Positions 38,507 to 58,256 of a DNA stretch of 64,000 nucleotides are shown piece after piece. The stretch is from contig JANQQE010000029.1 of assembly GCA_028285105.1 (NCBI GenBank), positions 40,256 through 104,255 of the forward strand. The letters run 5' to 3'. The position numbers and the translations under genes are program-made. The first letter of the stretch is position 1. The number at the start of each line of letters is the position of its first letter. Below the pieces are notes generated by a model, which made no database searches, had not been told where the DNA came from, and worked only from the letters and a program-made list of their open reading frames with translations. This DNA is from Alphaproteobacteria bacterium (lineage in GTDB: Bacteria; Planctomycetota; Phycisphaerae; UBA1845).

Positions 38507-38508
38507 CC

Positions 38509-39300: not shown

Positions 39301-40571
39301 GTAAAACGATCGTTCCGGTCTCGCAGCCTGCACCGCACGCGAGCCAGCCGGGCCTCTTGGATCGGATTGCCCGAAGGATGGTGGTTGCAGGTTTGCAACG
39401 CATTACCGCGGGCCGCTTGACTCTGACGGAAGGCGATGCACAGTCTCATTACGGCATTCAGAATACAGGTGAATCGACGGTACATATCCAAATCCATGAC
39501 CCGCGATTTTATCGATCCGTCGCATGGGGCGGAACACTGGGAGCCGGGCAGGCGTACATCAACGGGTGGTGGACATGCGACGATCTGACTCGCCTGATCC
39601 AGCTGGTCCTGCAAAATCAAGAATCGTTCGCCCAACTCAATGGGGGGCGAACGCGTTTTTCTGGAGCGCTATTGCGAGGGTGGAATCTGCTTCGGCGCAA
39701 CACGCTGAATGGAAGCCGGCAAAATATCGCAGCACACTATGACCTGAGCAACGAGTTCTACGAATTGTTCCTCGATGAATCCATGACCTATTCATGCGGT
39801 ATTTTCGAGTCAGAAAACGCGACGTTATACCAGGCGTCCGTCGCAAAACTCGATCGGATTTGCCGGAAACTCGAACTCAAGCCCGAAGATCATGTGATCG
39901 AAATCGGTACCGGGTGGGGCAGTTTTGCCATCCATGCAGCCAGGAACTACGGCTGTCGTATAACAACGACCACCATCTCGCAGCAGCAGTTCGATCTGGC
40001 AACCAAACGCTCTAAGGATGCAGGCCTGTCAGACCGAATCACGTTGCTGCAAACGGACTATCGTCAACTGACGGGCCAATACGACAAACTCGTGTCAATC
40101 GAAATGATCGAGGCCATCGGCTGGCAGCAATATCCCCAGTATTTCAGAATGTGCGGTGAACTGCTCAAACCGGAAGGCGTCGCTTGCATCCAGGCTATCA
40201 CGAAAGCCGACCGATTCTACGAAGACTCGAAACGGGCGGTCGATTTTATCAAACGATTCGTTTTTCCCGGAAGCTGTATACCATCCATCGGCGCGATGTC
40301 CGGCGCTGTCGCTCGCTCGTCGGATCTAACCATCGCGCATCTGGAAGACATCACACCGCACTACGCGACTACCCTTAGATGCTGGCGCGATCGGTTTAAC
40401 AGGCAGTTGCAAAACGTCCGCGCCCTCGGTTTCTCAGACGCATTCATCCGAATGTGGGAGTACTACCTTTGCTACTGCGAAGCCGGATTCCGCCAGCGGG
40501 TCATCGGAGACGTGCAGATGGTTTTGACCAAGCCTGGTTTCAGAGGGCAACTGCCATTGGGAACCCTATGA
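39294..40571 (+). CDS. cfa: SAM-dependent fatty-acyl-phospholipid methyltransferase (Cfa/UfaM family)
   Basis: NIAAHYDLSNEFYELFLDESMTYS, VIEIGTGWG, SIEMIEAIG, DFIKRFVFPG, HYATTL, MWEYYLCYCEAGF. Confidence 0.9.
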   Translation: MLSKTIVPVSQPAPHASQPGLLDRIARRMVVAGLQRITAGRLTLTEGDAQSHYGIQNTGESTVHIQIHDPRFYRSVAWGGTLGAGQAYINGWWTCDDLTRLIQLVLQNQESFAQLNGGRTRFSGALLRGWNLLRRNTLNGSRQNIAAHYDLSNEFYELFLDESMTYSCGIFESENATLYQASVAKLDRICRKLELKPEDHVIEIGTGWGSFAIHAARNYGCRITTTTISQQQFDLATKRSKDAGLSDRITLLQTDYRQLTGQYDKLVSIEMIEAIGWQQYPQYFRMCGELLKPEGVACIQAITKADRFYEDSKRAVDFIKRFVFPGSCIPSIGAMSGAVARSSDLTIAHLEDITPHYATTLRCWRDRFNRQLQNVRALGFSDAFIRMWEYYLCYCEAGFRQRVIGDVQMVLTKPGFRGQLPLGTL

Positions 40572-41149
40572 ACGAACCACCGAACATGTGGAGAATTGCA
40601 CTCGAAGTTGCCGGGTATCAGGTGGCTTGGTGGAGTTGCGTGCTGTCGGTTCGCGCCGAAGCGATATGGGTTGGCTTAACTGTGACAGTGGTCGTGTTCG
40701 CCATTCATCTTTCCTACTCGCCGAACGTTCAGGGCGAGCTTTGGGCCGTTCCCGTCGCTGCGGGAATGGGCTTCCTGACTGACATCGTGGCGACGTGGCT
40801 TGGCGCATTGAAGTTTGAATCGGCGACGCTGCCGCTGCTACCGGCACCGCTTTGGATCGCAGCCATGTGGTTGGCGTTTGCAATGCTGATCGTTCCATGT
40901 TTTGCCTGGCTGGCCGACCGCCCTTTGGCGGCTGCGTTGATGGGGGCGACGAGTGGACCCACCGCCTACGGTGCCGGTGTCGCACTTGGAATCGTGGAGA
41001 TGCCGCACCTTTGGTGGAGCGTTCTTACGCTCGCCGTCTTGTGGGCGATCGTTGTGCCGATTGCGATCAAGTTTGTTGTCGCATGTACGCTGGAATCGAT
41101 GACGGGCGAAGCATGTGTCGCAGCTCAACCGGAGACGCTTTGTGAATGA
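40568..41149 (+). CDS. DUF2878-like membrane protein
   Basis: ATGA coupling to cfa; YQVAWWSCV, APLWIAAMWLAFA, SGPTAYGAG; position typical of cfa clusters. Confidence 0.75.
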   Translation: MNEPPNMWRIALEVAGYQVAWWSCVLSVRAEAIWVGLTVTVVVFAIHLSYSPNVQGELWAVPVAAGMGFLTDIVATWLGALKFESATLPLLPAPLWIAAMWLAFAMLIVPCFAWLADRPLAAALMGATSGPTAYGAGVALGIVEMPHLWWSVLTLAVLWAIVVPIAIKFVVACTLESMTGEACVAAQPETLCE

Positions 41150-41933
41150 TTGGCTTCAACATCTCGGTTGGGGTTTGGGCGGTGCGGCCATCATGATGTT
41201 TGCCCTTTGGCTGATGCAGCGACGCACGAAGAATGCGGGGATTGTCGATGTGGGGTGGACTTTCGGAATCGGCGCGCTGACGCTTGGGCTTGCGGTATTT
41301 TCAAGCGGTGCGCTTTTTCGACGGGTGTTGGTTGCAACCATGACGATCGTCTGGTCGATGCGATTGGGTTACCACTTGGTGCGTCGCGTTTTCAGCGAAC
41401 CGGAGGACGGCCGCTACCGCAATCTCCGCGAATGGGCTGGCGATCGGCAGCAAATCGTGTTGCTCATATTCTTTTTGCTACAAGCCAGCTGGGTCGTTCT
41501 GTTCGCGATGCCTCAGTACATCGCCATGCAGAACGCGCGTCCGTTCGCCTGGTTCGACGCCGCGGCCATCGGCATATTCGCCGTTTCATTGATCGGCGAA
41601 TCGATCGCGGATCGACAGCTGGCCGCGTTTCGCGAATCCTCCGACAACCAAGGCAAGGTTTGCAAAATCGGATTGTGGCGTTACTCGAGGCATCCAAACT
41701 ACTTCTTCGAATGGCTGCATTGGTTCGCTTATCCGCTGTTGGCCGTCGGTATGGGCTGGCTCGCGTGGGTGACTTTGGTCGGTCCCGCATTGATGTTGCT
41801 GTTTCTGCTCAAGATTACCGGTATCCCTCCAACCGAGAAGCGTGCCCTTCAAAGTCGCGGCGAAAGATACCGAGAGTACCAACGCACCACCAGTGCATTT
41901 GTTCCCTGGTTTCCAAGGGAGAGTACGACATGA
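41142..41933 (+). CDS. DUF1295 (steroid 5-alpha-reductase-like) membrane protein
   Basis: NAGIVDVGW, EDGRY, ESIADRQL, GLWRYSRHPNYFFEWLHW, YREYQRTTSAFVPW; GTG 41142 with GGAG SD. Confidence 0.88.
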   Translation: MNDWLQHLGWGLGGAAIMMFALWLMQRRTKNAGIVDVGWTFGIGALTLGLAVFSSGALFRRVLVATMTIVWSMRLGYHLVRRVFSEPEDGRYRNLREWAGDRQQIVLLIFFLLQASWVVLFAMPQYIAMQNARPFAWFDAAAIGIFAVSLIGESIADRQLAAFRESSDNQGKVCKIGLWRYSRHPNYFFEWLHWFAYPLLAVGMGWLAWVTLVGPALMLLFLLKITGIPPTEKRALQSRGERYREYQRTTSAFVPWFPRESTT

Positions 41934-43054
41934 AAAGCGATTACAAATCATATGGACCGACTGCCCTGGCAGAACGTGGCTGGATACCGGAATTTTTGAT
42001 TCGCTGGGGCATTCGACGTCTGCTCAGCGCCCGCTTGCAAAAGGAATTGGGCGCCGATTGTGAGGAGCGCCACGAATCACAGCAGCGATTTCTTGAATCC
42101 ATGCATGACAGTCCGGTCGCAATCGTTCCGGAAAAAGCCAATGAGCAGCACTATGAAATCCCCGCAGCGTTTTTCGAGTTGGTACTCGGTCGCCATCGAA
42201 AATACAGTTGTTGCCAATGGACGGACCAAACGCATTCGCTTGACGACGCGGAGGCTGCGATGCTTTCCCTGACCTGCGAGCGTGCTGAACTCAAGGACGG
42301 CCAATCGATTTTGGAACTGGGATGTGGCTGGGGATCGCTCACGCTGTGGATGGCCAGACAGTATCCAAACGCCCGCATCACCGCGATCTCCAACTCGGCG
42401 AGTCAGGGGAGTTTTATTCGAAACCAGTGCGAGCAATCGGGTTTCAACAATGTCCGAGTGATGACGGCGGACATGAATGCATTCAAGCCGGACGGCGTGT
42501 TCGATCGGGTGATTTCCGTCGAGATGTTCGAGCACATGCGGAATCTAAGCGCACTGCTTCGCCGAATCGATGGTTGGCTGACCGAGGAAGGCAAGCTGTT
42601 CGTACATATTTTCACCCATCAATCGTGTTCCTACCCGTTCGAAACGACGGGAAAGGACGATTGGATGGGGCGATACTTTTTTTCAGGTGGCATGATGCCT
42701 TCCGACCACTTGCTGCTGTACTTGCAGGATACCTTGAAACTCGATCGCCACTGGTGCGTCAACGGTAAACACTATGAAAAAACGGCAAACGCATGGCTCA
42801 ACAATATGAATTCCCGTCGTTCGGAGATTCTGCCTGTCTTGCAACAGACGTATGGAGTAGCCGATGCCGAACGATGGTACCACCGCTGGCGAATGTTCTT
42901 CATGGCATGCGCCGAACTTTGGGGGTATCGCGATGGTAATGAATGGCGCGTTGGGCATTATTTGATGAGCCGTCGGGTGTCCACGGACTTGAAGTCGACG
43001 GGGGGCGATTCATTGGATTTTGTCAAAAGAGATACGCTATGCACTTCCGTTTGA
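41930..43054 (+). CDS. Second Cfa-like SAM-dependent methyltransferase
   Basis: ATGA coupling (ATG 41930); KANEQHYEIP, ILELGCGWG, SVEMFEHMRN, WMGRYFFSGG, WRMFFMACAELWG. Confidence 0.9.
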   Translation: MKSDYKSYGPTALAERGWIPEFLIRWGIRRLLSARLQKELGADCEERHESQQRFLESMHDSPVAIVPEKANEQHYEIPAAFFELVLGRHRKYSCCQWTDQTHSLDDAEAAMLSLTCERAELKDGQSILELGCGWGSLTLWMARQYPNARITAISNSASQGSFIRNQCEQSGFNNVRVMTADMNAFKPDGVFDRVISVEMFEHMRNLSALLRRIDGWLTEEGKLFVHIFTHQSCSYPFETTGKDDWMGRYFFSGGMMPSDHLLLYLQDTLKLDRHWCVNGKHYEKTANAWLNNMNSRRSEILPVLQQTYGVADAERWYHRWRMFFMACAELWGYRDGNEWRVGHYLMSRRVSTDLKSTGGDSLDFVKRDTLCTSV

Positions 43055-43668
43055 ATATTGCACTGGGCATGCTGGCGATGCTCTCCGGTTGCGAACGCCA
43101 ATCCGCGACTCCCGTTTCGACAGTGGATACGAATTCGGTTACACCGTCATCAAAGTTGGTGTCGGGTGATTCACTAAGAAGTCGCAGCAACAAAGCACTC
43201 AAGACCGTTGACGAAGTTGACCTCGATCGCTACCTCGGCAAATGGTATGAGTACGCCCGGTATCCGAACGCATTTCAGAAGAACATCGTAGGCGTCATTG
43301 CGGAGTATCGACGGCGCGACGACGGTCGTCTCGATGTCATCAACATGGGCAAGGTTCGGAAACTCGATGGCAAAGATGATCGATCCGAATCGATCGGATG
43401 GGTGGTTGAAGGGACCAAAAATACCCGCTGGCGGGTTCAGTTTATTTGGCCGTTCAGTGTTCCCTATTGGATCATCGATCTGGATGACGACTACCAATGG
43501 GCCGTCGTCGGTCAACCGTCCCGAAAATACCTGTGGGTCTTGAGTCGAACGCCACAACTCGATGACGAAATTTTCAGCGCAATCTGCGATCGATTGAAAG
43601 AGCAGGGCTACGATCCAGCGCGACTCAAGAAAACGCCCCAGCCTCAAGGAGACTCAAAGCCGAAATGA
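43039..43668 (+). CDS. blc: Lipocalin lipoprotein (Blc family)
   Basis: Lipobox LSG-C; VDLDRYLGKWYEYAR; QFIWPF; YWIIDLDDDYQWAVVG; YLWVLSRTP. Confidence 0.88.
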   Translation: MHFRLNIALGMLAMLSGCERQSATPVSTVDTNSVTPSSKLVSGDSLRSRSNKALKTVDEVDLDRYLGKWYEYARYPNAFQKNIVGVIAEYRRRDDGRLDVINMGKVRKLDGKDDRSESIGWVVEGTKNTRWRVQFIWPFSVPYWIIDLDDDYQWAVVGQPSRKYLWVLSRTPQLDDEIFSAICDRLKEQGYDPARLKKTPQPQGDSKPK

Positions 43669-43799
43669 AAGTTCCCTCCGGATGAGGAAATTCGTTGTAC
43701 TGAAGCGCTGCAATGCCGACAGCCGTTCGACAACCTTGTCTGTCGATGAACCCTGCGTTTTCACGCCAAGAATTCGCAGGAAGTGCAAGGCTTGGTTTA

Positions 43800-44642
43800 T
43801 CACCCGGTAGAGCAACTGGCATCATCGAAAAATGTTCCCGTTGCTTGCCAGAGCGATTCCAGGCGATCGATACGCTCCCGAGCATCATCACCCAGCAAAA
43901 CAGCGGCGCGGGCGACGATGAGTTCGGCTGCTACGACTGCGGGCACGGAACTGTCGAACGGTCCGACTGCCGGAATCTTCAGGTGCCCCCATGCATGCGA
44001 GATTTGCGCAATCGGGGAAAGTGGTCCGTCGGTAATCGCGAGGATCTTGACGCCTTCATCGGCCAATGCCCTGGCTGCCGTAATCGAGTGACGCCGGTAG
44101 CGACTGAAATCGAACACGACCGCAGCTTCGCCGGCGCGGGCCCCGGCCAAATCCCTGCCCATTTCGTACTCGGTGACCAGTCGAACATCCGACCTGAGCA
44201 TCGACAATCCCGCATACAACGTGTGTGCCCCCGCCAACGAAGTCTCGCCGGAAAGGATCCAGACATGAGCCGCTTCGACCATCGGTTGAACCAGTGCGTC
44301 AAGTCGCCGATCGGTGAGCGACTCGAACACGTCGTAGACGGCTTCGAGCACCGATCGACGAAGCGGACCGGCTTCCTGCTGTTGCCGAATGCGATGGCTC
44401 GGTCTTGAGAGTTGATCTGAAACTTGGTCTCGTTCTTGCGCCTGGAGGTCCGAATACCCTTCGAATCCCAACTTCATCGCGAACCGCACGATGGAAGGCC
44501 GACTGGTGCCAACACGGTCGGCCAACTCCGAGACCGTCCCAAACGCGAGCAACGTCGGATTTTCCATTACTGCTTCGGCGATTCGACGTTCGGTCGGGGT
44601 GAGGCGGTCGCCCGCAGTCGCGATGAGATCCTGGATGGACAA
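43800..44642 (-). CDS. MurR/RpiR-family transcriptional regulator (HTH + SIS)
   Basis: LTPTERRIAE...TVSELADRVGTSRPSIVRFAMKLGFEGYSDLQ; SIS motifs VFDFSRY, ILAITDGPLSPIA. Confidence 0.92.
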   Translation of the reverse strand: MSIQDLIATAGDRLTPTERRIAEAVMENPTLLAFGTVSELADRVGTSRPSIVRFAMKLGFEGYSDLQAQERDQVSDQLSRPSHRIRQQQEAGPLRRSVLEAVYDVFESLTDRRLDALVQPMVEAAHVWILSGETSLAGAHTLYAGLSMLRSDVRLVTEYEMGRDLAGARAGEAAVVFDFSRYRRHSITAARALADEGVKILAITDGPLSPIAQISHAWGHLKIPAVGPFDSSVPAVVAAELIVARAAVLLGDDARERIDRLESLWQATGTFFDDASCSTG

Positions 44643-44665
44643 TCAAAGCCCCTTTGGTCATTTTG

Positions 44666-44743: not shown

Positions 44744-46210
44744 ATGATCCAGAAGCTGAAACACATCCCGACGGCGCGCGAACAGGCTTTTCTCGACACC
44801 GTCGAGGATACGCAATACCAGCGCGACATCATCAACGGACTCTCACCATTTTTCGATGAAAAAGCGCCTGCGGACATGCTTCAATTCTATTCCAAAGGCG
44901 AAGTCGCCTCGCTCCGCGTTCTCAAGGGGACCGACCGCGATGTCGAAGATCGCATGCCGGTCAAGATTACACGTCACTATTACGAGTTGGCGAAGAACTC
45001 AGAACCGATCAGCCGAATCGTCAAAGCCAGCCCGGACGAAACGGACAACCTTCAGGGTTCTGAAGACCCCGGTTTTCAAATGGACTATGCGCCGGTCGAA
45101 GGGCTGCTCCACAAATACGAAATGGGCTTGATGTACGTCATCTCGACATGCTCTGCACACTGTCGATTTTGTTACCGCGAAGAACTCATCGCCCGAAAAG
45201 ATATTGAACGGCAGGACGGGACCGTTGCCAAGAAGGGTCTGGCACAGATTCCCGAGATCATCGCATACATCAAAGAACACAATGACGCGGTGGAAGCCAA
45301 CGGTGGTCGTCACCCCGAAAGCGGACGCGAGAAACTCCGAGAGATTCTCCTGTCGGGTGGTGACGCCATGGTCCTTGGCAATTCCAAACTTGCCGCATGG
45401 TTCGGTGCGCTTGCCGAAGCCGGGATCGAATCCATCCGCGTCGGAACCAAGGAGATGGCGTTCTACCCCCAGCGCTTCGACCGCACGCTGCTTGAAATGC
45501 TCGACCGATTCCATGAAACGTACCCGCAGGTCGGGATGCACTTCATGCTTCACTTTCAGCACCCCGACGAAATTCTTGCCAAGGATGCTGACGGAAACTA
45601 CATCGAGGATGAAAAGGGCTTCAAGCAGTGGATTCCGGAAACCGGCGAAGCAATGCGCGGGCTGGTCTCGCGCGGGTGGCTGACTGTTGAAAATCAGGCA
45701 CCGATCATCAAAGGCATCAACGACGATGCCGATGCACTTCGCATTCTCCAGCGAGAATTCAAACGCGCTGGCGGAGAGAACCACTACTTTTTCTGTGGCC
45801 GCGATATCGTCGCATACAAAGCGTTTAACATTCCCATCGAAGAGGCGTGGAGTATTCTCAACACGTCCCAGAGGGGTTTATCCGGTGTAGAATGCCACGC
45901 CAAACTTTCGATCACGCACTACAAAGGCAAGACCGAAGTGGCGGCAGTGACCAACGAACCGATTCCGGGCCTTGCCGGTTCCGAAAACGGTGTCGTGATT
46001 TTCAAGATCCTGCGTAATGCCGGTAGCGCGCCAGACAAAGGAAAGGTCTGCATCGTCGGCCGCAACCCCAATGCCGTCTGGTTCGACGATTACGAAGACC
46101 GTGTCCTCTTCGATGAAGCCGGTTTGTATAATTACGACCGAGTGAAGAAATCGGGTGAAGCGCCGAGTAGTTGTTCGGCTTCCGCCGGCAAACCAGGGTG
46201 TGCGGGATGA
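44744..46210 (+). CDS. KamA-family radical-SAM/PLP amino acid 2,3-aminomutase, probably non-lysine substrate
   Basis: EGLLHKY, CSAHCRFCYR (CxxxCxxC plus Arg), LLSGGDA, HFQHPDEI, NQAPIIKGIND, GKTEV (PLP Lys); ATG 44744 with GGAG SD. Confidence 0.85.
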   Translation: MIQKLKHIPTAREQAFLDTVEDTQYQRDIINGLSPFFDEKAPADMLQFYSKGEVASLRVLKGTDRDVEDRMPVKITRHYYELAKNSEPISRIVKASPDETDNLQGSEDPGFQMDYAPVEGLLHKYEMGLMYVISTCSAHCRFCYREELIARKDIERQDGTVAKKGLAQIPEIIAYIKEHNDAVEANGGRHPESGREKLREILLSGGDAMVLGNSKLAAWFGALAEAGIESIRVGTKEMAFYPQRFDRTLLEMLDRFHETYPQVGMHFMLHFQHPDEILAKDADGNYIEDEKGFKQWIPETGEAMRGLVSRGWLTVENQAPIIKGINDDADALRILQREFKRAGGENHYFFCGRDIVAYKAFNIPIEEAWSILNTSQRGLSGVECHAKLSITHYKGKTEVAAVTNEPIPGLAGSENGVVIFKILRNAGSAPDKGKVCIVGRNPNAVWFDDYEDRVLFDEAGLYNYDRVKKSGEAPSSCSASAGKPGCAG

Positions 46211-46917
46211 TCGACAAGCGTGTGAACACGCCGCATGAAGTGGTCGCCGACATCTTCGACGGTGCGACCATCATGATTGGCGGGTTTGGGGAAGCGGGCA
46301 GTCCGGTCGAGTTGCTCCATGCGATCATCGATCAAGGTGCATCCGACCTGACGATCATAAGCAACAACACCGGTTCGGGCGAAGTCGGTCTCGCGGCGCT
46401 CATCAAAGTCGGGCGGGTTTCAAAAGCGATCTGCTCCTATCCGCGCACTGCCAACTCGACTGTTTTTGCAGAACTCTATCGAAGCGGTCGCATCGAACTC
46501 GAACTTGTTCCGCAGGGTACGTTGGCTGAACGCATTCGTTGCGGTGGTGCGGGGGTGCCGGCGTTTTATACCGCAACGGCCGTCGGTACCCCGCTGGCTG
46601 AGGGTAAGGAACTGCGCGAGTTTGAAGGCAAGCAATACGTACTAGAGCGGGGCCTTCGAGCAGACTTTACGATCATCAAGGCCCGCACTGCCGACGTTCA
46701 CGGTAACCTTTTATACAACAAGACGGCCCGCAATTTCGCGCCGATCATGGCGACGGCATCGAACTGTACGATCGTGCAGGCGCAGGATGTCGTTGAGGCA
46801 GGCGACATCGATCCGGAAACCGTTGTGACGCCCGGTTTGTTCGTAGATCGTGTTGTTCAAGTCGCAGAACCAGCCCACGAATCCGAACTTGTCGCCGCCG
46901 GAGCTTCCTACCCATGA
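46207..46917 (+). CDS. pcaI: 3-oxoadipate CoA-transferase subunit A-like
   Basis: IMIGGFGEAGSP, SNNTGSGEVGLAAL, CSYPRTANSTVFAELYRSGRIELELVPQGTLAERIR, ARNFAPIMA; ATGA coupled. Confidence 0.85.
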   Translation: MIDKRVNTPHEVVADIFDGATIMIGGFGEAGSPVELLHAIIDQGASDLTIISNNTGSGEVGLAALIKVGRVSKAICSYPRTANSTVFAELYRSGRIELELVPQGTLAERIRCGGAGVPAFYTATAVGTPLAEGKELREFEGKQYVLERGLRADFTIIKARTADVHGNLLYNKTARNFAPIMATASNCTIVQAQDVVEAGDIDPETVVTPGLFVDRVVQVAEPAHESELVAAGASYP

Positions 46918-47597
46918 CCAGCAAAGATTCGAAAGCGGGTTGGTCGCGCGAGGAGATGGCTGCCCGTCTTGCTCAAGACATTCCCAACGGGTCGTATGTG
47001 AACCTTGGCATCGGTATTCCTGAACTCGTTGCCAGATTCGTACCCGAAGACAAGACGCTCATCTACCACACCGAGAATGGCTTGATTGGAATGGGCCCTT
47101 CACCGGAAGCGGGACAAGGCGATCCTGAACTGATCAATGCAGGCAAGCGTCAAGTCACGGCGATGCCCGGTGCGGCATACTTTCATCACGCCGACAGTTT
47201 CGTCATGATTCGTGGTGGACACATCGATCTGTGTGTCCTCGGTGCGCTTCAGGTCGCGCAAAATGGCGACCTCGCAAATTGGTCCACCGGTCAGCCCGAC
47301 GCAATACCGGCGGTCGGTGGTGCGATGGACCTCGTCGCAGGGGTCAAGTCCATCTACGTCATCACCCAGCACACAACCAAGCATGGCGATCCAAAACTCG
47401 TCGAATCCTGTACGTATCCACTGACCGGGCTTGGCGTGGTCGATCGCATTTACACGAACCTCGCCGTCATCGAAGTGACGCCGGATGGGTTTGGCGTCAG
47501 CGAACTCAGTCCGGGTATCGATTTCCAAGACGTGCAAAACCAAACCGGCGCTCCACTCAGCGATATCCGCGAAAGCGCGACGGCAAACAACCCATGA
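46914..47597 (+). CDS. pcaJ: 3-oxoadipate CoA-transferase subunit B-like
   Basis: YVNLGIGIP, HTENG (catalytic Glu), LINAGK, YFHHADSF.MIRGGH, IPAVGGAMDL, CTYPLTG; ATGA coupled. Confidence 0.85.
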   Translation: MTSKDSKAGWSREEMAARLAQDIPNGSYVNLGIGIPELVARFVPEDKTLIYHTENGLIGMGPSPEAGQGDPELINAGKRQVTAMPGAAYFHHADSFVMIRGGHIDLCVLGALQVAQNGDLANWSTGQPDAIPAVGGAMDLVAGVKSIYVITQHTTKHGDPKLVESCTYPLTGLGVVDRIYTNLAVIEVTPDGFGVSELSPGIDFQDVQNQTGAPLSDIRESATANNP

Positions 47598-48916
47598 ACA
47601 CACGAACCGATCTCTCGCGTTGCGCCGATCTTTTTGCTCGGGCGCAGAAAGTTCTACCGGGTGGCGTTTCACGTAACACAGTCTTACGTTCACCCTATCC
47701 CGCGTATGCAGACTACGGAAAAGGTTGCCACGTCACCGATCTTGACGGGGTCACACGCATCGACTTCTCCAATAACATGGCCTCCCTCATCCACGGGCAC
47801 GCCCATCCCGAAATTGTCCGGGTCGTCAACGAGCAGATGGCCCGCGGCTCGGCATTCATGCTGGCGACTGAGGTTGAAGTGCAGTATGCGGAACACCTGT
47901 GTTCACGCTCGCCTTCGTTCGACATGCTGCGATTTGTAAACTCCGGGACCGAAGCCATCATGGTCGCGATCAAAGCCAGTCGTGCATTTACAGGTAAATT
48001 TAAAGTCGCAAAGGTGGAAGGTGCCTACCACGGAGGGTACGACTACGCGGAAGTCTCGCAAGCGCCGACACCGGAGACATGGGGCAGCCACGACAAACCG
48101 CACTCAGTGCCTCTGGTGCATGGCACGCCAGAGTCTTCGCTGCGCGACGTCGTGATCATTCCCTTTAACGACACCGACCGGGCCATCAAGATCTTAAACG
48201 AACACGCCCACGAGGTTGCCTGCGTTCTGCTCGATCTCATGCCGCACCGAGTCGGATTGAATCTCGTCAAGCCGGAATACATCGAAGCAATACAGAAGTG
48301 GGTTGCCGATCACGACGCCCTCCTGGTACTCGACGAAGTTATTACCTTTCGTTCTGAGTACGGCGGACTGCAAACTCGCTATGGCATCAAGTCTGACCTC
48401 ACTGCTCTTGGCAAGATGATCGGCGGCGGTTTTCCAGTCGGCGCCGTCGCGGGCCGGGCCGATGTCATGGACGTCCTTAATCCCAAATCGCACCGGTTCC
48501 TGTTCCCTCACTCCGGCACGTTTTCGGCCAACCCGATTTCGATGTCGGCGGGTTTGATGGCGATGGCGTTATTCGACCAGAAGGAGGTCGCGAGACTGAA
48601 CGCCCTGACCGATCGTGCGATTGACGGTATCAGAAAAGCCATCGACACCACGGGAGCCTGCGCGTGCGTCACGGGCGGTGGATCGATGTTGCGCGTTCAT
48701 ATGAAAGAAGAACCACCGCACAATTTTCGCGAAGCATTCAATACGGACGCCGAGAAAATGCGATTGGCCACGCTGCTCGATCACCTGTTCTCCGAGGGCT
48801 TTATCATGATCAACACCTGCTCGGCGACGCTTTCAACGCCCATGACGGAAATCGAAATCGATGCGCTCGTTGCGGCCATGGAATCAGGACTCGCAAAGAT
48901 CGCGTCAATGCCTTAG
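47594..48916 (+). CDS. Class III PLP aminotransferase (HemL-like fold, not HemL)
   Basis: ATG 47594 with ATGA coupling; LPGGVSRN, RFVNSGTEA, GAYHGGYD, LDEVITFR, DLTALGKMIGGGFPVGA, HSGTFSANP. Confidence 0.9.
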   Translation: MNTRTDLSRCADLFARAQKVLPGGVSRNTVLRSPYPAYADYGKGCHVTDLDGVTRIDFSNNMASLIHGHAHPEIVRVVNEQMARGSAFMLATEVEVQYAEHLCSRSPSFDMLRFVNSGTEAIMVAIKASRAFTGKFKVAKVEGAYHGGYDYAEVSQAPTPETWGSHDKPHSVPLVHGTPESSLRDVVIIPFNDTDRAIKILNEHAHEVACVLLDLMPHRVGLNLVKPEYIEAIQKWVADHDALLVLDEVITFRSEYGGLQTRYGIKSDLTALGKMIGGGFPVGAVAGRADVMDVLNPKSHRFLFPHSGTFSANPISMSAGLMAMALFDQKEVARLNALTDRAIDGIRKAIDTTGACACVTGGGSMLRVHMKEEPPHNFREAFNTDAEKMRLATLLDHLFSEGFIMINTCSATLSTPMTEIEIDALVAAMESGLAKIASMP

Positions 48917-50118
48917 GCCTTCGAGAAAATCGTGGCAAGACCTTGCCCAACGCCAACACACAATGAAGCGATTCCTCGTTCAACGCCTCGTCGACTCATC
49001 TCGTGGATCAGCGTTGTCGCGATCCGTGTACCGCTGCATCCGAGCGGGTGTCCAATTGCAATTGCGCCACCGTTTACATTGAGTTTGTCGTCAGTGATCT
49101 TGAGGTCGCGCTGACAAGCGATCGACTGCGCGGCAAAGGCTTCGTTGATTTCAACAAGTCCGACATCGTCAAGTGTAAGCCCCGCCCGATCCAATGCCTT
49201 GCGGATCGCCGGTACCGGTCCAAGTCCCATGTAAGCCGGGTCAACGCCGGCTGACGCACTGCAACCGACGAATGCGATGGGTTTCAAACCCAGCGCCGCT
49301 GCTTTTGATTCTTCGACGATCAGCAAGGCGGCTGCCCCATCGTTCACGCCCGAAGAATTCCCAGCCGTCACAGTTCCTTTGTCATCCTTTGCAAACACGG
49401 GGCGGAGTTTGGCCAACTGCTCCATGGTCACGTCGGGCCGGGGATGCTCATCTGTATCCACGACCAGCGCCGGTCCTTTTCGCTGAGAAATTTCAACCGG
49501 CACGATCTCATCGTTAAATGCGCCTTGCTTCTGCGCTTTTGCCCACTTCTGTTGGCTCGACAACGCAAATCGATCCTGCGATTCTCGATCGATTCCGTAT
49601 TTGCGTGCCACATTCTCCGCTGTCTCACCCATCGGAAACGGGTGATGCTTCTCAGCCAACTTTGGATTTACAAAGCGCCACCCGATGGACGTGTCGTAGA
49701 TTTGTTGTGTCCGACCATATGCATTCTCGGACTTGCTCAGCACGTATGGGGCACGGCTCATCGACTCGACTCCGCCAGCCACAAACACATCGCCGTGATT
49801 CGCCTCAATCATGCGGGCTGCGATGTTGATGGCTTCAAGCCCCGAAGCACACAGACGATTGACCGTTGACCCCGGAATCGTCTCGGGGAGTCCGGCGAGC
49901 AATGCGGCCATCCGCGCGACATTGCGGTTGTCTTCACCAGCCTGGTTGGCGGCACCGAAGTAGACATCGTCGATCAGCGAAGACTCGATGCCTGATCGCT
50001 GGATGACAGCGCGAATGACGGTGGCAGCAAGATCATCGGGCCGAACCGTAGCAAGCCTTCCACCAAATCGTCCGACCGGCGTGCGGACAGCAGCAATAAC
50101 AGCAGCTCGACGTTTCAT
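48913..50118 (-). CDS. pcaF: Beta-ketoadipyl-CoA thiolase-like (PcaF/PaaJ family)
   Basis: VRPDDLAA, ANQAGEDNRNVARMA, TVNRLCASG (Cys), TSIGWRFVNP, NEAFA, GGAIAIGHPLG, SLCVGVGQG. Confidence 0.85.
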   Translation of the reverse strand: MKRRAAVIAAVRTPVGRFGGRLATVRPDDLAATVIRAVIQRSGIESSLIDDVYFGAANQAGEDNRNVARMAALLAGLPETIPGSTVNRLCASGLEAINIAARMIEANHGDVFVAGGVESMSRAPYVLSKSENAYGRTQQIYDTSIGWRFVNPKLAEKHHPFPMGETAENVARKYGIDRESQDRFALSSQQKWAKAQKQGAFNDEIVPVEISQRKGPALVVDTDEHPRPDVTMEQLAKLRPVFAKDDKGTVTAGNSSGVNDGAAALLIVEESKAAALGLKPIAFVGCSASAGVDPAYMGLGPVPAIRKALDRAGLTLDDVGLVEINEAFAAQSIACQRDLKITDDKLNVNGGAIAIGHPLGCSGTRIATTLIHEMSRRGVERGIASLCVGVGQGLATIFSKA

Positions 50119-52456: not shown

Positions 52457-52505
52457 GAGATATCAACCATGCGCATTTATCAGCGAATGATCGGGAAGGG
52501 TGAAG

Positions 52506-55500
52506 ATGCATAAGAAGCAATGCGGTGATCGTTTTGTCGTTGGATTTTCGGTATTGGTTATGTTGGCGGCTGGCGGATTGGCAAACGGGCAATCGGTAGG
52601 GCTGCAGTCTGCGGATTCGGTTTGGACAACGGCGCTGCGCGCGGCGGTTGAGGGTGAACTGGCACAGGCGTGGGTGCGTCCGCAGCAGTATCAAGCCGTC
52701 ACATTTGACGAACGACAAATGAGTCTGCTTATCAAAGGCGCTCCGCTTGAAGATGAGATATCGGTTCGCGACACGTCGTCTGTCATCGAACTTCCAATGC
52801 CCGACGGCTCGTTCTCACGGTTTCGATTTGTAGAAGCTCCGGTGATGGCCCCGGAACTGGCCGCCCGTTTTCCAGAGATTCGAACGTTTTATGGGCAGGG
52901 CATCGACGATCCGCATGCACAAGTGCGGTTCGACAAGACTCCGGCAGGCTTCCACGCTCAAATCTTGAGCCCCAACGGAGCCGTCTACATTGACCCGATC
53001 AACAGAGGCGATACGCTGAATTATGCCAGCTATTACAAGCGCGACTTGGCCCAGCCAAACGAACTGCCCAAGTGTCAACTCTTCCCGAATCCCGATGCCG
53101 GACATGCCGGCAATTCAACTGACAATGCGCGCGGGGCGGAACGCGTTGCCGAAACGCTCCGAACGTATCGTTTGGCTGTCGCAACAACGGCAGAGTACAC
53201 ACAGTTTCACGGTGGAACGGTTCCTTTGGGGATGGCCGCTGTCGTAACGGCAGTTAATCGTGTGACCGGTGTGTACGAATCAGAGGTCGCAGTTCGCTTT
53301 GAGCTCATCGCTAACAACGATTTGCTGATCTACACATCCAACCCCGACCCGTACTCAAACGGCGACGGAATTGCCATGCTGGGGCAGAATCAAAGCAACA
53401 TCGACAGCGAGATCGGAAGTGGGAACTACGACGTCGGACATGTTTTCAGCACTGGTGGCGGTGGTGTTGCAAGTCTGGGAGTGATCTGTTCAGGATCGAA
53501 AGCGCGGGGAGTGACTGGACAGGGCAGCCCCATCGGCGATCCGTTCTACATCGACTATGTTGCTCACGAATTGGGGCATCAATTCGGCTCCAACCACAGC
53601 TTTAATGGTGTTGGCGGCAATTGCGCCGGTGGTAATCGAAACGGTTCAACCGCCTACGAACCTGGCAGCGGTTCGACAATCATGGCTTACGCTGGAATTT
53701 GCAGCAGCGACAATCTGCAATCCAACAGCGATCCGTATTTTCACCACGACAGCTTCCGCGAGATTCGCAATCACATAACCGGCGGATCGGGTAACAATTG
53801 CCCGGTCACAACCGCGACGGGAAACAACGATCCGGCTGTGAACGCCGGCGCGAACCACACAATTCCGCAGGGCACGCCTTTTGAATTGACGGCAAGCGGT
53901 TCAGATCCAGACCTCGATCCGCTTACCTATTGCTGGGAAGAACGCGACCTGGGTCCGGCACAATCGATCGCGTCTTCCGACAATGGCAGCAGCCCGCTGT
54001 TTCGATCGTACAACCCGACGGTCAGCCCGACACGTACGTTTCCGCGTTTGCAGGATTTGATCAACAACACGACCGCGCCGGGCGAGCAGTTGCCATCAAC
54101 GAACCGCGCAATGAATTTCCGCTGTACAGCCCGCGACAACCAAGCCGGTGGCGGCGGAGTCGATTTCGATGATATGGTCGTCACGGTCACGACGAGTTCA
54201 GGTCCGTTCATCGTTACCTCACCCAACGGCGGGGAAACGTGGTCCGGAGTCGCAACCGTTAATTGGAACGTCGCAGGCACGGACAGCGCCCCAGTGTCGG
54301 CTGCGACAGTTGACCTGCTTCTTTCGACGGATGGCGGTTTGACCTATCCGATTGTATTGGCAAGCGGAACGCCCAATGACGGAAGCGAGTCGGTGATCGT
54401 GCCCAATGCGCCAACAAGCACTGCCCGCGTCAAGGTCAAGGGCAGTGGCAATGTATTCTTCGACATTTCAAATGCGGACTTCACAGTAGACCAACCCGGC
54501 GCTTTGGCCATCGTGCTTCCTTCGGGGCCTCCGAGTGAAGTGCCGCCAAGTGTCACTACCAATATCGACGTTCAAGTGATTCCCATTGGTGAGAACATCG
54601 TGCCCTCGTCGCCAACGCTGCATTATCGCCCGAATATCTTCGTGTCGTTCCAGACGATCGCATTAAATCCTGTAGGTGGCGATCTCTACGAAGCACCGTT
54701 GCCCGGTTTCACCTGTTCGGATGCTGCCCAGTTCTACTTCAGTGCTCAGGGTGACGGTGGTACAACCGTGACGACGCCTGTCGATGCGCCTTCCTCATTC
54801 TTTATTGCCAATGTCGGACAGAACGAGCAGGTCTTTGCAGATAGTTTTGAAACCGATTTGGGATGGACAGCGACCGGTAACGCATCGGAAGGTCAATGGG
54901 AGTTGGGCATTCCGGTGGACTTCGATCGCGGCGACCCAACCGCTGACTTTGACGGATCGGGTCAGTGTTACCTCACCGAGAACGATCCTGGTGACAGCAA
55001 CTCGGACGTCGACGATGGTACGGCTACGCTGACGTCGCCAGTATTCGATCTATCCAATGGCGGCACGATCAACTATGCCTACTGGTTAAATGACATTCCA
55101 ACAGGTCCTCTGGGGTCAGAGGATTCGATGGAAGTCGAGTACGCCACCAATGTGGCTGGCACGAATTGGCAGACGATTCGCACTTACACGTCAGCATCGG
55201 GCAGTTGGCGAAACGACAGCATCGAAGTCGGTTCCGAGACGGCGTCAAGTTCAACATTTCGAATTCGTTTTTCGGTCAGCGATCTGTCGCCAGGCGATGT
55301 TGTCGAAGGCGGTCTCGATGCGTTCGAGATTACTGCTTTCACCTGCACGGACATTGGCAACGGCGATTTCGACCTGGATGGCGATGTGGACCTGGCCGAC
55401 TTCGCCGAAATGCAGGCGTGCTGGGGAGCGACGAGTCCACTGGGTGTTTGCGCGCCTGGCGATTTGGACGGCAGCGCATCGATTGGTATCAATGACTTGC

Positions 55501-55538
55501 CAGTGTTTGTTTCTCTGTTGACAGACCCGACGCCGTAG
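52506..55538 (+). CDS. Secreted reprolysin-like (M12B) zinc metallopeptidase with Ig-like/beta-sandwich domains and dockerin-like tail
   Basis: Signal peptide and propeptide; RTYRLAVATTAEY; VAHELGHQFGSNH (HExxHxxGxxH); EPGSGSTIMAYAG Met-turn; GDFDLDGDVDLADF tail. Confidence 0.92.
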   Translation: MHKKQCGDRFVVGFSVLVMLAAGGLANGQSVGLQSADSVWTTALRAAVEGELAQAWVRPQQYQAVTFDERQMSLLIKGAPLEDEISVRDTSSVIELPMPDGSFSRFRFVEAPVMAPELAARFPEIRTFYGQGIDDPHAQVRFDKTPAGFHAQILSPNGAVYIDPINRGDTLNYASYYKRDLAQPNELPKCQLFPNPDAGHAGNSTDNARGAERVAETLRTYRLAVATTAEYTQFHGGTVPLGMAAVVTAVNRVTGVYESEVAVRFELIANNDLLIYTSNPDPYSNGDGIAMLGQNQSNIDSEIGSGNYDVGHVFSTGGGGVASLGVICSGSKARGVTGQGSPIGDPFYIDYVAHELGHQFGSNHSFNGVGGNCAGGNRNGSTAYEPGSGSTIMAYAGICSSDNLQSNSDPYFHHDSFREIRNHITGGSGNNCPVTTATGNNDPAVNAGANHTIPQGTPFELTASGSDPDLDPLTYCWEERDLGPAQSIASSDNGSSPLFRSYNPTVSPTRTFPRLQDLINNTTAPGEQLPSTNRAMNFRCTARDNQAGGGGVDFDDMVVTVTTSSGPFIVTSPNGGETWSGVATVNWNVAGTDSAPVSAATVDLLLSTDGGLTYPIVLASGTPNDGSESVIVPNAPTSTARVKVKGSGNVFFDISNADFTVDQPGALAIVLPSGPPSEVPPSVTTNIDVQVIPIGENIVPSSPTLHYRPNIFVSFQTIALNPVGGDLYEAPLPGFTCSDAAQFYFSAQGDGGTTVTTPVDAPSSFFIANVGQNEQVFADSFETDLGWTATGNASEGQWELGIPVDFDRGDPTADFDGSGQCYLTENDPGDSNSDVDDGTATLTSPVFDLSNGGTINYAYWLNDIPTGPLGSEDSMEVEYATNVAGTNWQTIRTYTSASGSWRNDSIEVGSETASSSTFRIRFSVSDLSPGDVVEGGLDAFEITAFTCTDIGNGDFDLDGDVDLADFAEMQACWGATSPLGVCAPGDLDGSASIGINDLPVFVSLLTDPTP

Positions 55539-55562
55539 TAGTTTCGTTCAATAGGATGGTAC

Positions 55563-58256
55563 ATGATTGAGAAGTTCACCAAAGCGAGCGGATTAATGAT
55601 GACCTCGGCTGACCGTTTCTTTCGGCGAAATATCAGCGCTATCGCTGAGTTACCGCTTCTGGCAGTAGTGGTTGTGACATGCGTGGCGGCGGTCCCTTGC
55701 GGTTTGCGCGGCGCAGTCGTTTCAATCGGCGCTGTCAAAGACAACACCATCTTTGGCGAATCCAACTCGTTGAGTAATGGTGTTGGGGATCACTTTTTTT
55801 CGGGCACCACAAGTGTCGGAAATGTTCGCCGCGGACTGGTGGCATTCGACATCGCGGGAAACATTCCCGCCGGTTCAATCATCAACTCTGTGACCCTGAC
55901 TCTCAATATGTCGCGGAGTACCGGTTCACCGGAATTTGTGTCCCTTCATAGGGTGCTTACGGATTGGGGCGAGGGAGCCTCTGACGCAAGCGGAAACGAG
56001 GGCGGCGGGGCGTTTCTTGCGAACAATGATGCGACTTGGCTATACGCTCGATACAACAGTTCGAGTCCTGTTTCCTCTGACTTTTGGGTAACGCAAGGAG
56101 GTGACTTTGAACCATTTCCGAGTGAAACGCAGACGATTATTGGAAATGCGTTTTACACCTGGGGCAGTTCCAAAGGTATGGTCGCAGATGTGCAAGGGTG
56201 GCTCGACAATCCTTCCGTAAATTTTGGTTGGATTCTGATTGGCAACGAGAAAATCGGCACGTCGTCGAAACGCTTCGATACCAAGGACAATCCGAACCCA
56301 AGCGTTCGACCGGACTTGGCCATCGACTTTACACCGCCATCGGCGCAAGGCGCGTGTTGCGACGGTGTCGGATCGTGCTACACGACAAGCATGACTGGCT
56401 GCAACAATGCAGGCGACTCATATGAAGGCGATGGAACGACGTGTTCGCCGAATCCATGCAGCACTGCAACGGGGGCATGCTGCGACGATAATGGATCTTG
56501 CACACTGGAAAGTGAAAGCAATTGCACGACTTCGGGTGGAACGTATCAAGGTGATTTCACTATCTGCACAAATGGATTGTGCCCCGTCGTCTTAGCGCCA
56601 TTTCTCGATCCACTACCCATTCCTCCAATCGCAACGCCCACGACAGGCACTGCTGGTCAAGCGGCAACGTACGACATCGAAATCGTGCAGGTCGAGCAGC
56701 AACTTCACAGGCATCTGCCGCCGACAACTCTGTGGACCTATGACGGTGTTTTTCCGGGGCCGACGATTCTCGCCACGCGCGACCAACCGGTAACGGTCAA
56801 TTGGATCAACAATCTTCAAAACGCAAACGGCACACCGCGAACCGATCACTATCTCGATGTCAATCTCTGCCCACATGGCGCAGAGGACGTCCCAAAGACA
56901 GTGGTTCATCTTCATGGCGGTCATGTCCCGGCCGATGTCGATGGTTATCCGGAGGATGCTTATCTGCCTGGGGCCATGTTGAGTTACCAATACCCAAACA
57001 AGCAACTTCCGGGCCTGCTTTGGTACCACGATCATGCGCTGGGTATCACGCGCCTTAATGTATACATGGGTCTTGCAGGTGCCTACATCATTTCCGATGC
57101 ATTTGAAGAAGCATTGAATTTGCCTTCAGGTGAATTCGAAGTGCCGCTGATTTTGCAGGATCGAAGTTTCCATCCCGACGGCTCGCTTAAATATCCTTCT
57201 GGTCTACCGGATCATTTTTTCGGCGATACGATGTTGGCCAACGGAATGGTCACGCCATTCATGGAAGTCAAGAAGGGCAAGTATCGATTCAGAGTGCTCA
57301 ATGGTTGCAATTCGCGCACATTGACTTTGTCGCTTTCAACCGGGCAGAGCTTTCAACAGATCGGTACAGATGGAGGACTGTTGCCTGCACCAGTGACGCT
57401 TTCAGAAGTGACGTTGGGACCGGCGGAACGTGCTGACCTCATTCTCGACTTCGCCGAGAACCTGGCCGGTGAAGAAATCATACTTGAGAATTCGGCGCCA
57501 GCACCGTTTCCTGGAACGCCTGGCCTGGGTGTTTTACCGAACGTGCTGAAGTTCGTTGTCACCAATGTTGCTGACTCAACCGATCCGTTACCGGCAACGT
57601 TAAGACCTATGGCAGAACTCGACCCAGACGATGCCGTGATCAACCGCGACTTTGTCTTGCAGAAGATACCGCACCCATGTTCAGGGACAGCATGGAAGAT
57701 CAACGATTTGCACTGGGGCGACATCGTCGAATTCCCGCGTTTGGGTACGACCGAAACGTGGACGTTCATCAATCGATCCGGAATCTCTCACCCGATGCAC
57801 GTTCACCTCGATTTTTTTCAGGTGTTGTATTCGCAGGACTTCATTGTTGTGGGCGAGAACATCACCACGAACGGTCCTAGAATTCCGCCTGCCCCCAATG
57901 AATCCGGTTGGAAAGACACCGTCATGGTTCCCCCGTTCAAACTCGTCAAAGTGGTGACGCGATTCGAAGACTACTCGGGACTGTTTCCATACCACTGTCA
58001 CATTCTCGAACACGAAGATCACGACATGATGCGTCAATTTCGGGCAGTTCGCTTCGGCGATGCAGATGTTGATGGTGACATCGATCTTGCCGACTATGGC
58101 GTCATGTTTGAATGTCTCAACGGACCGGATCTCGCACCCAGCCCCAATTCTCCGCCTCCGACGTCAGCCGATTGTCTAGAGGCGTTCGATGCTGATCAGG
58201 ACGGCGATGTCGATCTCGATGACTTCAAAAACATGCAGTTGAATTTCACCATGTGA
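55563..58256 (+). CDS. Secreted multicopper oxidase (CotA/bilirubin oxidase-like) fused to DNRLRE-like, GACC Cys-repeat and dockerin-like domains
   Basis: VHLHGGH, WYHDH, HPMHVH, YHCHILEHEDHDMM; N-terminal VKDNTI...RRGLVAFD; two GACC repeats; GDADVDGDIDLADY tail. Confidence 0.92.
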   Translation: MIEKFTKASGLMMTSADRFFRRNISAIAELPLLAVVVVTCVAAVPCGLRGAVVSIGAVKDNTIFGESNSLSNGVGDHFFSGTTSVGNVRRGLVAFDIAGNIPAGSIINSVTLTLNMSRSTGSPEFVSLHRVLTDWGEGASDASGNEGGGAFLANNDATWLYARYNSSSPVSSDFWVTQGGDFEPFPSETQTIIGNAFYTWGSSKGMVADVQGWLDNPSVNFGWILIGNEKIGTSSKRFDTKDNPNPSVRPDLAIDFTPPSAQGACCDGVGSCYTTSMTGCNNAGDSYEGDGTTCSPNPCSTATGACCDDNGSCTLESESNCTTSGGTYQGDFTICTNGLCPVVLAPFLDPLPIPPIATPTTGTAGQAATYDIEIVQVEQQLHRHLPPTTLWTYDGVFPGPTILATRDQPVTVNWINNLQNANGTPRTDHYLDVNLCPHGAEDVPKTVVHLHGGHVPADVDGYPEDAYLPGAMLSYQYPNKQLPGLLWYHDHALGITRLNVYMGLAGAYIISDAFEEALNLPSGEFEVPLILQDRSFHPDGSLKYPSGLPDHFFGDTMLANGMVTPFMEVKKGKYRFRVLNGCNSRTLTLSLSTGQSFQQIGTDGGLLPAPVTLSEVTLGPAERADLILDFAENLAGEEIILENSAPAPFPGTPGLGVLPNVLKFVVTNVADSTDPLPATLRPMAELDPDDAVINRDFVLQKIPHPCSGTAWKINDLHWGDIVEFPRLGTTETWTFINRSGISHPMHVHLDFFQVLYSQDFIVVGENITTNGPRIPPAPNESGWKDTVMVPPFKLVKVVTRFEDYSGLFPYHCHILEHEDHDMMRQFRAVRFGDADVDGDIDLADYGVMFECLNGPDLAPSPNSPPPTSADCLEAFDADQDGDVDLDDFKNMQLNFTM

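Follow-up and report, generated by a model that had tools for sequence, protein, structure and literature searches.

The gene at positions 47594–48916 (forward strand) of the DNA stretch analyzed here, which comes from contig JANQQE010000029.1 of assembly GCA_028285105.1 (GTDB lineage Planctomycetota; Phycisphaerae; UBA1845) and is called the window throughout (64,000 nucleotides), encodes a HemL-like aminotransferase, P0001. This protein is very probably the β-amino-acid transaminase of its operon rather than HemL (glutamate-1-semialdehyde 2,1-aminomutase, or GSAM). As to mechanism, we favor, with a probability of about 0.55, the transamination of a free β-amino diacid, with P0001 acting as the second enzyme of an operon that begins with a radical S-adenosylmethionine (SAM) aminomutase and leads to coenzyme A (CoA) transfer and thiolysis. 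The observations bearing on this are the fold and the family placement of P0001, the loss of HemL residues, a separate hemL in the genome, the conservation of the operon, and invariant residues specific to the family.

47594–48916, plus strand: P0001, HemL-like class-III pyridoxal phosphate (PLP) aminotransferase of 440 amino acids, predicted to be a β-amino (di)acid:2-oxoacid transaminase

The open reading frame (ORF) at 47594–48916 (plus strand) gives a stop-free translation of 440 amino acids with a single Pfam domain, Aminotran_3 (PF00202, 178.3 bits for a gathering score of 30.5). This match, together with K274, D247, and the fold, places P0001 among the class-III (fold-type I) PLP aminotransferases. 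The predicted catalytic residues, K274 (Schiff-base lysine) and D247 (the aspartate at N1 of PLP), are invariant among the orthologs. The top NCBIfam match is hemL (TIGR00713), with 320.8 bits, under the curated cut-off of 527.3. The first-pass annotation had foreseen that automated pipelines would label the gene hemL, and the JGI entries for the orthologs do read "glutamate-1-semialdehyde 2,1-aminomutase" (those of NCBI read "aspartate aminotransferase family protein"). The motifs that it had quoted against such a label are present, GGVSRNTVL at residues 23–31 and YHGGYD at residues 145–150; at the aligned places, the canonical HemL of the same genome has GGVNSPVRAF and YHGHAD. Residue 148 is variable in the orthologs (mostly G or V), so that the family signature is YHGxYD versus YHGHAD in HemL. 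The annotation was also right that no hem genes lie nearby: profile searches find none from about 36 to 59 kb of the window.

The source genome (4.8 Mb in 36 contigs, 97.8% complete) contains a canonical hemL on contig 24 (G000:C24:129853-131115), with 606.3 bits on TIGR00713, above the 527.3 cut-off. Being the sole hemL of the genome, which the first-pass annotation had named as a finding that would refute the transaminase role, thus does not apply to P0001. In related genomes, a hemL above the cut-off is found in 17 of 21 and contig-truncated copies in two more; the paralog scoring 320–330 bits is patchy in these 21 genomes, occurring mainly in the window's own genus. In the alignment, S29, R32, N217, and E406 of GSAM correspond to R27, V30, R219, and A/C411 across the 80 P0001 orthologs described below. 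The R32 of GSAM is among its substrate and catalytic residues. The roles of Ser163, Asn217, and Glu406 in GSAM (GSAAT) are discussed in PMC6927412. The P0001 family also has seven extra residues where it aligns with the active-site lid of GSAM. P0001 and HemL (e.g., 2GSA) are alike in fold, PLP lysine (K274), Asp247, and overall length, with 30%–33% identity, but they differ in the sub-cut-off score, in the four replaced residues, and in the lid region. In a quick maximum-likelihood tree of P0001 relatives with SH-aLRT support, HemL is far from the clade of KamA-linked aminotransferases.

A genuine second HemL (a GSAM isozyme) would agree with the best NCBIfam match, the common fold, and the JGI label. 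However, the score is 206 bits short of the cut-off, a canonical hemL exists, the residues of GSAM for substrate and catalysis are replaced, the gene is locked into an operon with unrelated enzymes, and HemL is distant in the tree. The chance of this is negligible, and a true HemL identity was rejected on the grounds of score, separate hemL, and lost residues as well as of the patchy distribution of the family.

The reading of P0001 as a β-transaminase is supported by its nearest relatives of solved structure, which are StoTA (6K8H) and ForI, then MesAT and VpAT, and by the presence of the arginine that these enzymes use for the carboxylate. Sequence matches to the PDB are 368 bits for 6k8h, 317 for ForI (6ssd), about 230 for GSAMs, and 185–191 for 4ao9 and 2yku. 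An AlphaFold2 model of P0001, built from a 40-sequence alignment (mean pLDDT 93.2), has a template-modeling (TM) score of 0.95 with 6k8h (42% identity), 0.89 with ForI, and 0.86–0.89 with GSAMs, MesAT, and VpAT. Residue R27 aligns with R36 of StoTA and R23 of ForI, where HemL has Ser. It is invariant in 79 of the 80 orthologs (the sole exception is an alignment gap) and in 15 of 15 near outgroups. In the model, residues R27–L31 are predicted to form a short helix, with R32 directly after it.

Among solved structures, the nearest is StoTA (PDB 6K8H/5D95), the omega-transaminase of Sphaerobacter thermophilus. It deaminates aromatic, branched, and aliphatic β-amino acids and a γ-amino acid, and R36 is the residue proposed to bind their carboxylate (PMC10589169). 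The segment GG-x-[ST]-R-x-T is common to both proteins, as is Asn instead of Glu at the helper position (N70 of StoTA, N61 of P0001). On the other hand, StoTA has Tyr for M62, Y-S for L31-R32, and "PRS" opposite the "PHR" of the family, and at 42% identity it falls under the 64%–87% band of the KamA-linked orthologs (StoTA is absent from the tree). Its tested substrates are aromatic and aliphatic only. Both kinds of enzyme put forward in the first-pass annotation as HemL-like precedents, β-transaminases and 3-aminobutyryl-CoA aminotransferase (Kat), are found in the cited papers (PMC10589169, PMC3149608).

In ForI, the PLP transaminase of the formycin pathway (6SSD), R23, Y141, and W206-R207 correspond to R27, Y145, and H218-R219 of P0001, and both proteins are without an equivalent of GSAM Glu406. 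The substrate of ForI in that pathway is a glutamate-derived dicarboxylate. ForI is proposed to aminate a heterocyclic substrate with L-Glu or L-Asp as donor; its R23 blocks the gabaculine site of GSAM, and W206 and R207 line the pocket beside the cofactor and shift upon ligand binding (PMC6927412). In contrast to the role predicted for P0001, ForI is a biosynthetic enzyme of a natural-product cluster and aminates a heterocycle; it has Trp for the pocket His and no R32.

MesAT (2YKU) and VpAT (4AO9), β-phenylalanine/β-amino acid aminotransferases, belong to the same HemL-like subgroup as P0001 (TM 0.86). R41 of VpAT and Arg54 of MesAT form the salt bridge to the carboxylate of the β-amino acid (PMC9850050, PMC6698932); the equivalent Arg of P0001 is R27. 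The aromatic-binding residues V43/Y76 of VpAT and Ile56/Tyr89 of MesAT are T/A29 and M62 in P0001, and the helper Glu75 is Asn. Position 62, which aligns with the ring-binding Tyr76 and Tyr89, is Met (or V) in the P0001 family and mostly Tyr or Phe in outgroups. With T/A29, N61, and M62 in place of V43, E75, and Y76, the family lacks the Crismaru motif for aromatic β-amino acids (motif roles from PMC9850050 and PMC10589169); thus, it is not of the aromatic subtype and fits another side chain. In P0001, residues 406–416 contain no Arg, although other class-III enzymes would lead one to expect Arg412 there (MesAT was not in this alignment).

An ortholog scan with one genome per species gives 80 loci with 64%–87% identity to P0001. 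They belong to Phycisphaerae and other Planctomycetota and to Chthoniobacterales and other Verrucomicrobiota, with single contigs from Gemmatimonadaceae, Dehalococcoidia, and Pyrinomonadaceae. Since the next full-length clusters in a 50%-identity representative library are only 40%–48% identical to P0001, the family is a discrete orthogroup. Invariant or nearly so in the 80 orthologs are G23-G24-V25-S26-R27-N28, L31, R32, N60-N61-M62, Y145-H146-G147, Y149-D150, M216-P217-H218-R219, D247, and K274. R32 and H218, both invariant in the family, occur in only two and one, respectively, of 15 near outgroups; R219 is invariant in the family and in a more distant ortholog of Mesorhizobium and rare among outgroups. 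With H218-R219 aligned to the pocket pair W206-R207 of ForI, the pocket of P0001 is predicted to be more polar and more basic than those of the aromatic β-transaminases.

P0001 belongs to an operon, with a convergent and a divergent gene on either side:

43800–44642, minus strand: RpiR-type regulator (HTH_6 and SIS domains), divergent, upstream of the operon
44744–46210, plus strand: KamA-family radical-SAM aminomutase-like gene, 488 amino acids counted from the ATG at 44744 (the open frame extends back to a TTG at 44654)
46207–46917, plus strand: 3-oxoacid CoA-transferase subunit A (pcaI/scoA family; 336 bits, cut-off 128.5)
46914–47597, plus strand: 3-oxoacid CoA-transferase subunit B (pcaJ/scoB family; 293 bits, cut-off 243.6)
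48913–50118, minus strand: thiolase closest to 3-oxoadipyl-CoA thiolases, convergent on the 3′ end of P0001

The four plus-strand genes (aminomutase, the two transferase subunits, and P0001) are joined by three consecutive ATGA overlaps: the ATG of subunit A (46207) overlaps the stop codon of the aminomutase gene, subunit B has such overlaps at both ends, and the ATG of P0001 (47594) overlaps the TGA of subunit B (ATGA at 47594–47597). The TAG of P0001 (48914–48916) overlaps the stop codon of the thiolase gene. The KamA-like protein is the sole member of its family in the genome and keeps the CxxxCxxC motif, and it scores far under all curated KamA subfamily cut-offs (77 bits, for a cut-off of 650, with the glutamate 2,3-aminomutase model). 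It has an Arg aligned with R134 of LAM and, in a weak part of the alignment, an Arg opposite the lysine-binding Asp293 of LAM. The CoA-transferase is below the AtoD cut-off (215 versus 315 bits), and its nearest solved structures are of the SCOT type (3rrl, 3cdk). A second CoA-transferase of the pcaI/scoA family is found elsewhere in the genome, which suggests that the one in the operon is dedicated to another substrate. The thiolase reaches 564 bits with PRK09050 (cut-off 605) and 559 with the pcaF model TIGR02430 (cut-off 597); its nearest PDB entries are 1ulq, 8gqh, and PcaF 6pca (447 bits), with acetoacetyl-CoA thiolases at about 370 bits. Over models and structures, its lead for PcaF-type enzymes over acetoacetyl-CoA thiolases is about 70–100 bits. 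An ORF of 231 amino acids at 43713–44408 (plus strand) was discarded as an antisense shadow of the RpiR gene that matches other loci merely through the conservation of RpiR.

This arrangement is conserved. In tblastn searches of the window proteins against the 80 loci, the aminomutase is present in 69, subunit A in 72, subunit B in 74, the aminotransferase in all 80, the thiolase in 48, and the RpiR regulator in 35 (all labeled Planctomycetota). The gene order is constant, and contig ends explain most absences. In the tree, the KamA-linked aminotransferases, including the Mesorhizobium copy, form one clade (SH-aLRT 99).

The Mesorhizobium copy is found on the conjugative plasmid MesoLj113b2 of Mesorhizobium sp. 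113-3-3 (NZ_AP023244.1; L085:7169-12020), in a five-gene variant of the module with the order KamA-like gene, fdxA, aminotransferase, and two CoA_trans genes. The KamA-like protein has 65% identity to that of the window (and is annotated "hypothetical protein"), and the aminotransferase (L085:8992-10320, WP_244731024.1) has 54% identity to P0001 and keeps R27, N28, L31, R32, and H218-R219. The transferase β subunit, however, is closest to the glutaconate CoA-transferase GctB (1poi) and not to the SCOT/PcaIJ type. Thus, the aminomutase, the aminotransferase, and a family-I CoA-transferase stay together despite a nonorthologous replacement of the transferase. The plasmid module adjoins a BREX system, and the PLSDB gene table has no entry for the α subunit of its transferase. 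More distant plasmid homologs (44%–46% identity) occur in unrelated contexts, with hydantoinases, an aldolase and FAD oxidoreductases, or a BKACE enzyme as neighbors.

From these data, we infer which reaction takes place and in which direction, whether transamination or CoA transfer comes first, which compound accepts the amino group, and what the substrate is. In the first step, the KamA-like enzyme would shift the amino group from C2 to C3 of an acidic α-amino acid. P0001 would then pass the β-amino group to a 2-oxoacid (2-oxoglutarate or pyruvate) and release a free 3-oxoacid. R27 would grip the carboxylate at C1 in the manner of MesAT, VpAT, and StoTA, and R32, H218, and R219, with M62 in place of the aromatic ring-binder, would make room for a side chain bearing a carboxylate. 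The SCOT/PcaIJ-type transferase would form the 3-oxoacyl-CoA in the third step, and the PcaF-like thiolase would cleave it in the fourth. The likeliest pair would be 3-aminoadipate → 3-oxoadipate, with 2-aminoadipate converted overall to succinyl-CoA and acetyl-CoA. Transamination of the free acid is favored because the transferase is of the 3-oxoacid type and because R27 is invariant.

The CoA-transferase could instead act first, on the free β-amino acid, and P0001 would then turn the β-aminoacyl-CoA into the 3-oxoacyl-CoA for the thiolase. The net pathway would be the same. The precedent is Kat, which, like P0001, is a HemL-like class-III enzyme misannotated as hemL. As is also predicted for P0001, Kat acts at a β-amino group, adjoins a thiolase, and belongs to an amino-acid degradation pathway that begins with a 2,3-aminomutase (PMC3149608). 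The active-site cluster of Kat takes in B5JCU4 (Verrucomicrobium) and C1A9A5 (Gemmatimonas), for which acyl-CoA transamination was proposed (PMC3149608); their phyla do hold P0001 orthologs, among which these two entries may fall. In addition, the invariant R32, H218, and R219 could bind CoA phosphates, and the GctB-like transferase of Mesorhizobium is from a family that acts on plain dicarboxylates. On the other side, the CoA-transferase of the window is well above the pcaIJ/scoAB cut-offs, under that of AtoD, and nearest to SCOT structures, and R27, whose counterparts in MesAT, VpAT, and StoTA bind a free carboxylate, is invariant. Compared by description and context only, Kat also differs in working with KamDE, Kdd, and Kce in lysine fermentation, and its CoA-ester substrate is made by Kce, not by a CoA-transferase. 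No BKACE/Kce match was observed in the 97.8%-complete genome, and none occurs in the operon over the 80 loci, so that the supply of 3-aminobutyryl-CoA by lysine fermentation is missing. On this ground, a role like that of Kat in lysine fermentation was rejected; the finding counts solely against that role, not against a route through CoA esters. Altogether, we regard activation before transamination as unlikely.

As for the substrate, several features point to an acidic side chain: the PcaF-like thiolase, the extra basic residues of P0001 (R32 and H218-R219, with M62), the GctB-like transferase of Mesorhizobium, and the Arg of the KamA-like protein at the place of Asp293. The diacid part of the first-pass annotation thus draws indirect support from the thiolase, the Mesorhizobium transferase, and the additional invariant basic residues. 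Among diacids, 3-aminoadipate → 3-oxoadipate is the most economical choice because enzymes of the PcaIJ and PcaF types would then give succinyl-CoA and acetyl-CoA. We propose, tentatively and at somewhat less than even odds, that P0001 and its orthologs are 3-aminoadipate:2-oxoacid aminotransferases that would link a new radical-SAM 2-aminoadipate 2,3-aminomutase to the PcaIJ/PcaF steps of the β-ketoadipate pathway. As for the upper β-ketoadipate pathway from aromatics, no pcaD above cut-off is present in the genome, and so the PcaIJF-like genes are not obviously there for aromatics.

The same mechanism could serve other substrates, such as β-glutamate → 3-oxoglutarate, a C7 acid (the 3-amino derivative of diaminopimelate or of 2-aminopimelate), or a neutral or basic β-amino acid (3-aminobutyrate, β-lysine). 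No computed evidence fixes the chain length, the second-closest structure, ForI, is proposed to use L-Glu or L-Asp as donor (PMC6927412), and the GctB-like transferase of Mesorhizobium recalls C5 diacid chemistry. One verrucomicrobial locus has, directly upstream of the module (L046:690-3792), what look like peptidoglycan-peptide recycling genes, which encode an NlpC/P60 peptidase, a Mur-ligase-family protein, and an MR/MLE-type (dipeptide-epimerase-like) enzyme, but such genes are not conserved across loci. That no lysine → 2-aminoadipate route was found in the genome also belongs on this side. Against other substrates, the thiolase is closest to 3-oxoadipyl-CoA thiolases, and PcaIJ with PcaF is precisely the pair that 3-oxoadipate would call for. 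A neutral or basic substrate agrees poorly with the Arg of the KamA-like protein at Asp293 of LAM and with the extra basic residues of P0001, and for glutamate, the KamA-like protein is far from the 2,3-aminomutase model (77 versus 650 bits). These other substrates appear unlikely.

Several points weigh against a diacid substrate or against the scheme as a whole. The nearest characterized enzyme is only 42% identical, and its tested substrates are nonacidic β-amino acids. The placement of R32, H218, and R219 in the pocket comes from the ForI alignment, and these residues could equally bind CoA phosphates. The thiolase and both transferase subunits do not discriminate between C5 and C6 substrates. 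One would not expect a radical-SAM step in aerobic Mesorhizobium and Chthoniobacterales. The 80 loci share no conserved transporter or other neighbor that could name the substrate: all-against-all clustering of their ORFs reveals no further widely conserved neighbor (transporter, dehydrogenase), and spot checks give unrelated genes. In this genome, a route from lysine to 2-aminoadipate was not found, with no LAT above cut-off. The two saccharopine-dehydrogenase-like genes of the genome lie beside ispD, a cystathionine-β-synthase-like gene, and an adenine deaminase gene, without catabolic partners, and they have no tblastn match in the 80 loci. This negative result on lysine → 2-aminoadipate genes is in itself neither for nor against 2-aminoadipate as the substrate. 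Our literature search retrieved no enzymology for a 3-aminoadipate, β-aminoadipate, or β-glutamate aminotransferase, or for 3-oxoglutarate with an aminomutase, and no paper describing the aminomutase/CoA-transferase/aminotransferase module.

The distribution of the family is patchy, with an ortholog in only six of 201 sampled Planctomycetota, and the verrucomicrobial aminotransferases are nested inside sequences of Phycisphaerales (SH-aLRT 100). This patchiness and nesting point to a horizontal spread of the module. The copy labeled Pyrinomonadaceae (L065; Acidobacteriota), on a contig of 1846 bp, is nearly identical to the Chthoniobacterales copies L045, L057, and L061 (branch lengths of 0.013–0.03 in the tree) and probably reflects mis-binning or a very recent transfer.

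The direction of the pathway was considered as well. With all four reaction types reversible in principle and with the close relative ForI running in the aminating direction (PMC6927412), the thiolase and the CoA-transferase could make, from acyl-CoAs, a 3-oxoacid that P0001 aminates, and the aminomutase would yield an α-amino acid or the β-amino acid would be released. However, there are no conserved biosynthetic partners nearby (nonribosomal peptide synthetase, ligase, exporter), the module is patchy and accessory among the Planctomycetota sampled, and in that phylum it has a divergent regulator of the repressor type, typical of catabolic operons. A biosynthetic role is very improbable, and we retain the catabolic order described above.

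Verrucomicrobial loci have variable defense genes of the restriction-modification, TIR, and AbiEii types in the gap that separates the aminotransferase from the thiolase (L046:9298-14328, L052:9500-10738, L058:9289-14626, L068:9488-12565). They include C-5 cytosine methylases, an Eco29kI-type nuclease, a TIR-domain protein, an AAA_21/AbiEii-like ATPase with DUF4276, and HATPase_c_3. This gap looks like an integration hot spot within a metabolic module. In about 10 verrucomicrobial loci besides L058 (7598-7978), as in L058 itself, a small gene for a "23S rRNA-intervening sequence protein" (PF05635) is inserted between subunit B and the aminotransferase. A second thiolase-like gene, of the SCP-x type (Thiolase_N and Thiolase_C_1), is found upstream of the KamA-like gene and divergent from it at L063:3673-4908 (minus strand) and in 10 other verrucomicrobial loci.

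Elsewhere in the window, a co-directional lipid-modification cluster precedes the operon (36309–43668), with a fatty-acid desaturase, a flavin amine-oxidase-like protein, DUF1365, a CFA-synthase-like methyltransferase, DUF2878, DUF1295, a second long CMAS-domain protein, and a Blc-type lipocalin. Outside the module, at 52500–58256, genes occur for a reprolysin-type (M12B) metallopeptidase of 1012 amino acids with a PKD domain and then for a multicopper oxidase of 897 amino acids.

HemL-like β-transaminases are already known; new would be the substrate class, the family signature, and the role downstream from a radical-SAM aminomutase. The hemL label on the P0001 family inflates the calls of the heme pathway and conceals a catabolic module. 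If the proposal is correct, β-amino dicarboxylates would be a new substrate class for HemL-like β-transaminases, and a clade known mainly from biocatalysis screens would gain a physiological role. A β-transaminase taking acidic side chains could serve to make or to resolve β-amino diacids, and the plasmid copy of Mesorhizobium sp. 113-3-3 is available in a cultured, genetically tractable host. P0001 would then be the missing deamination step of an undescribed pathway initiated by an aminomutase. With 3-aminoadipate as the substrate, that pathway would be a new way through the lower half of lysine breakdown, in which neither 2-oxoadipate dehydrogenase nor glutaryl-CoA dehydrogenase takes part and which has spread horizontally in Planctomycetota, Verrucomicrobiota, and other groups.

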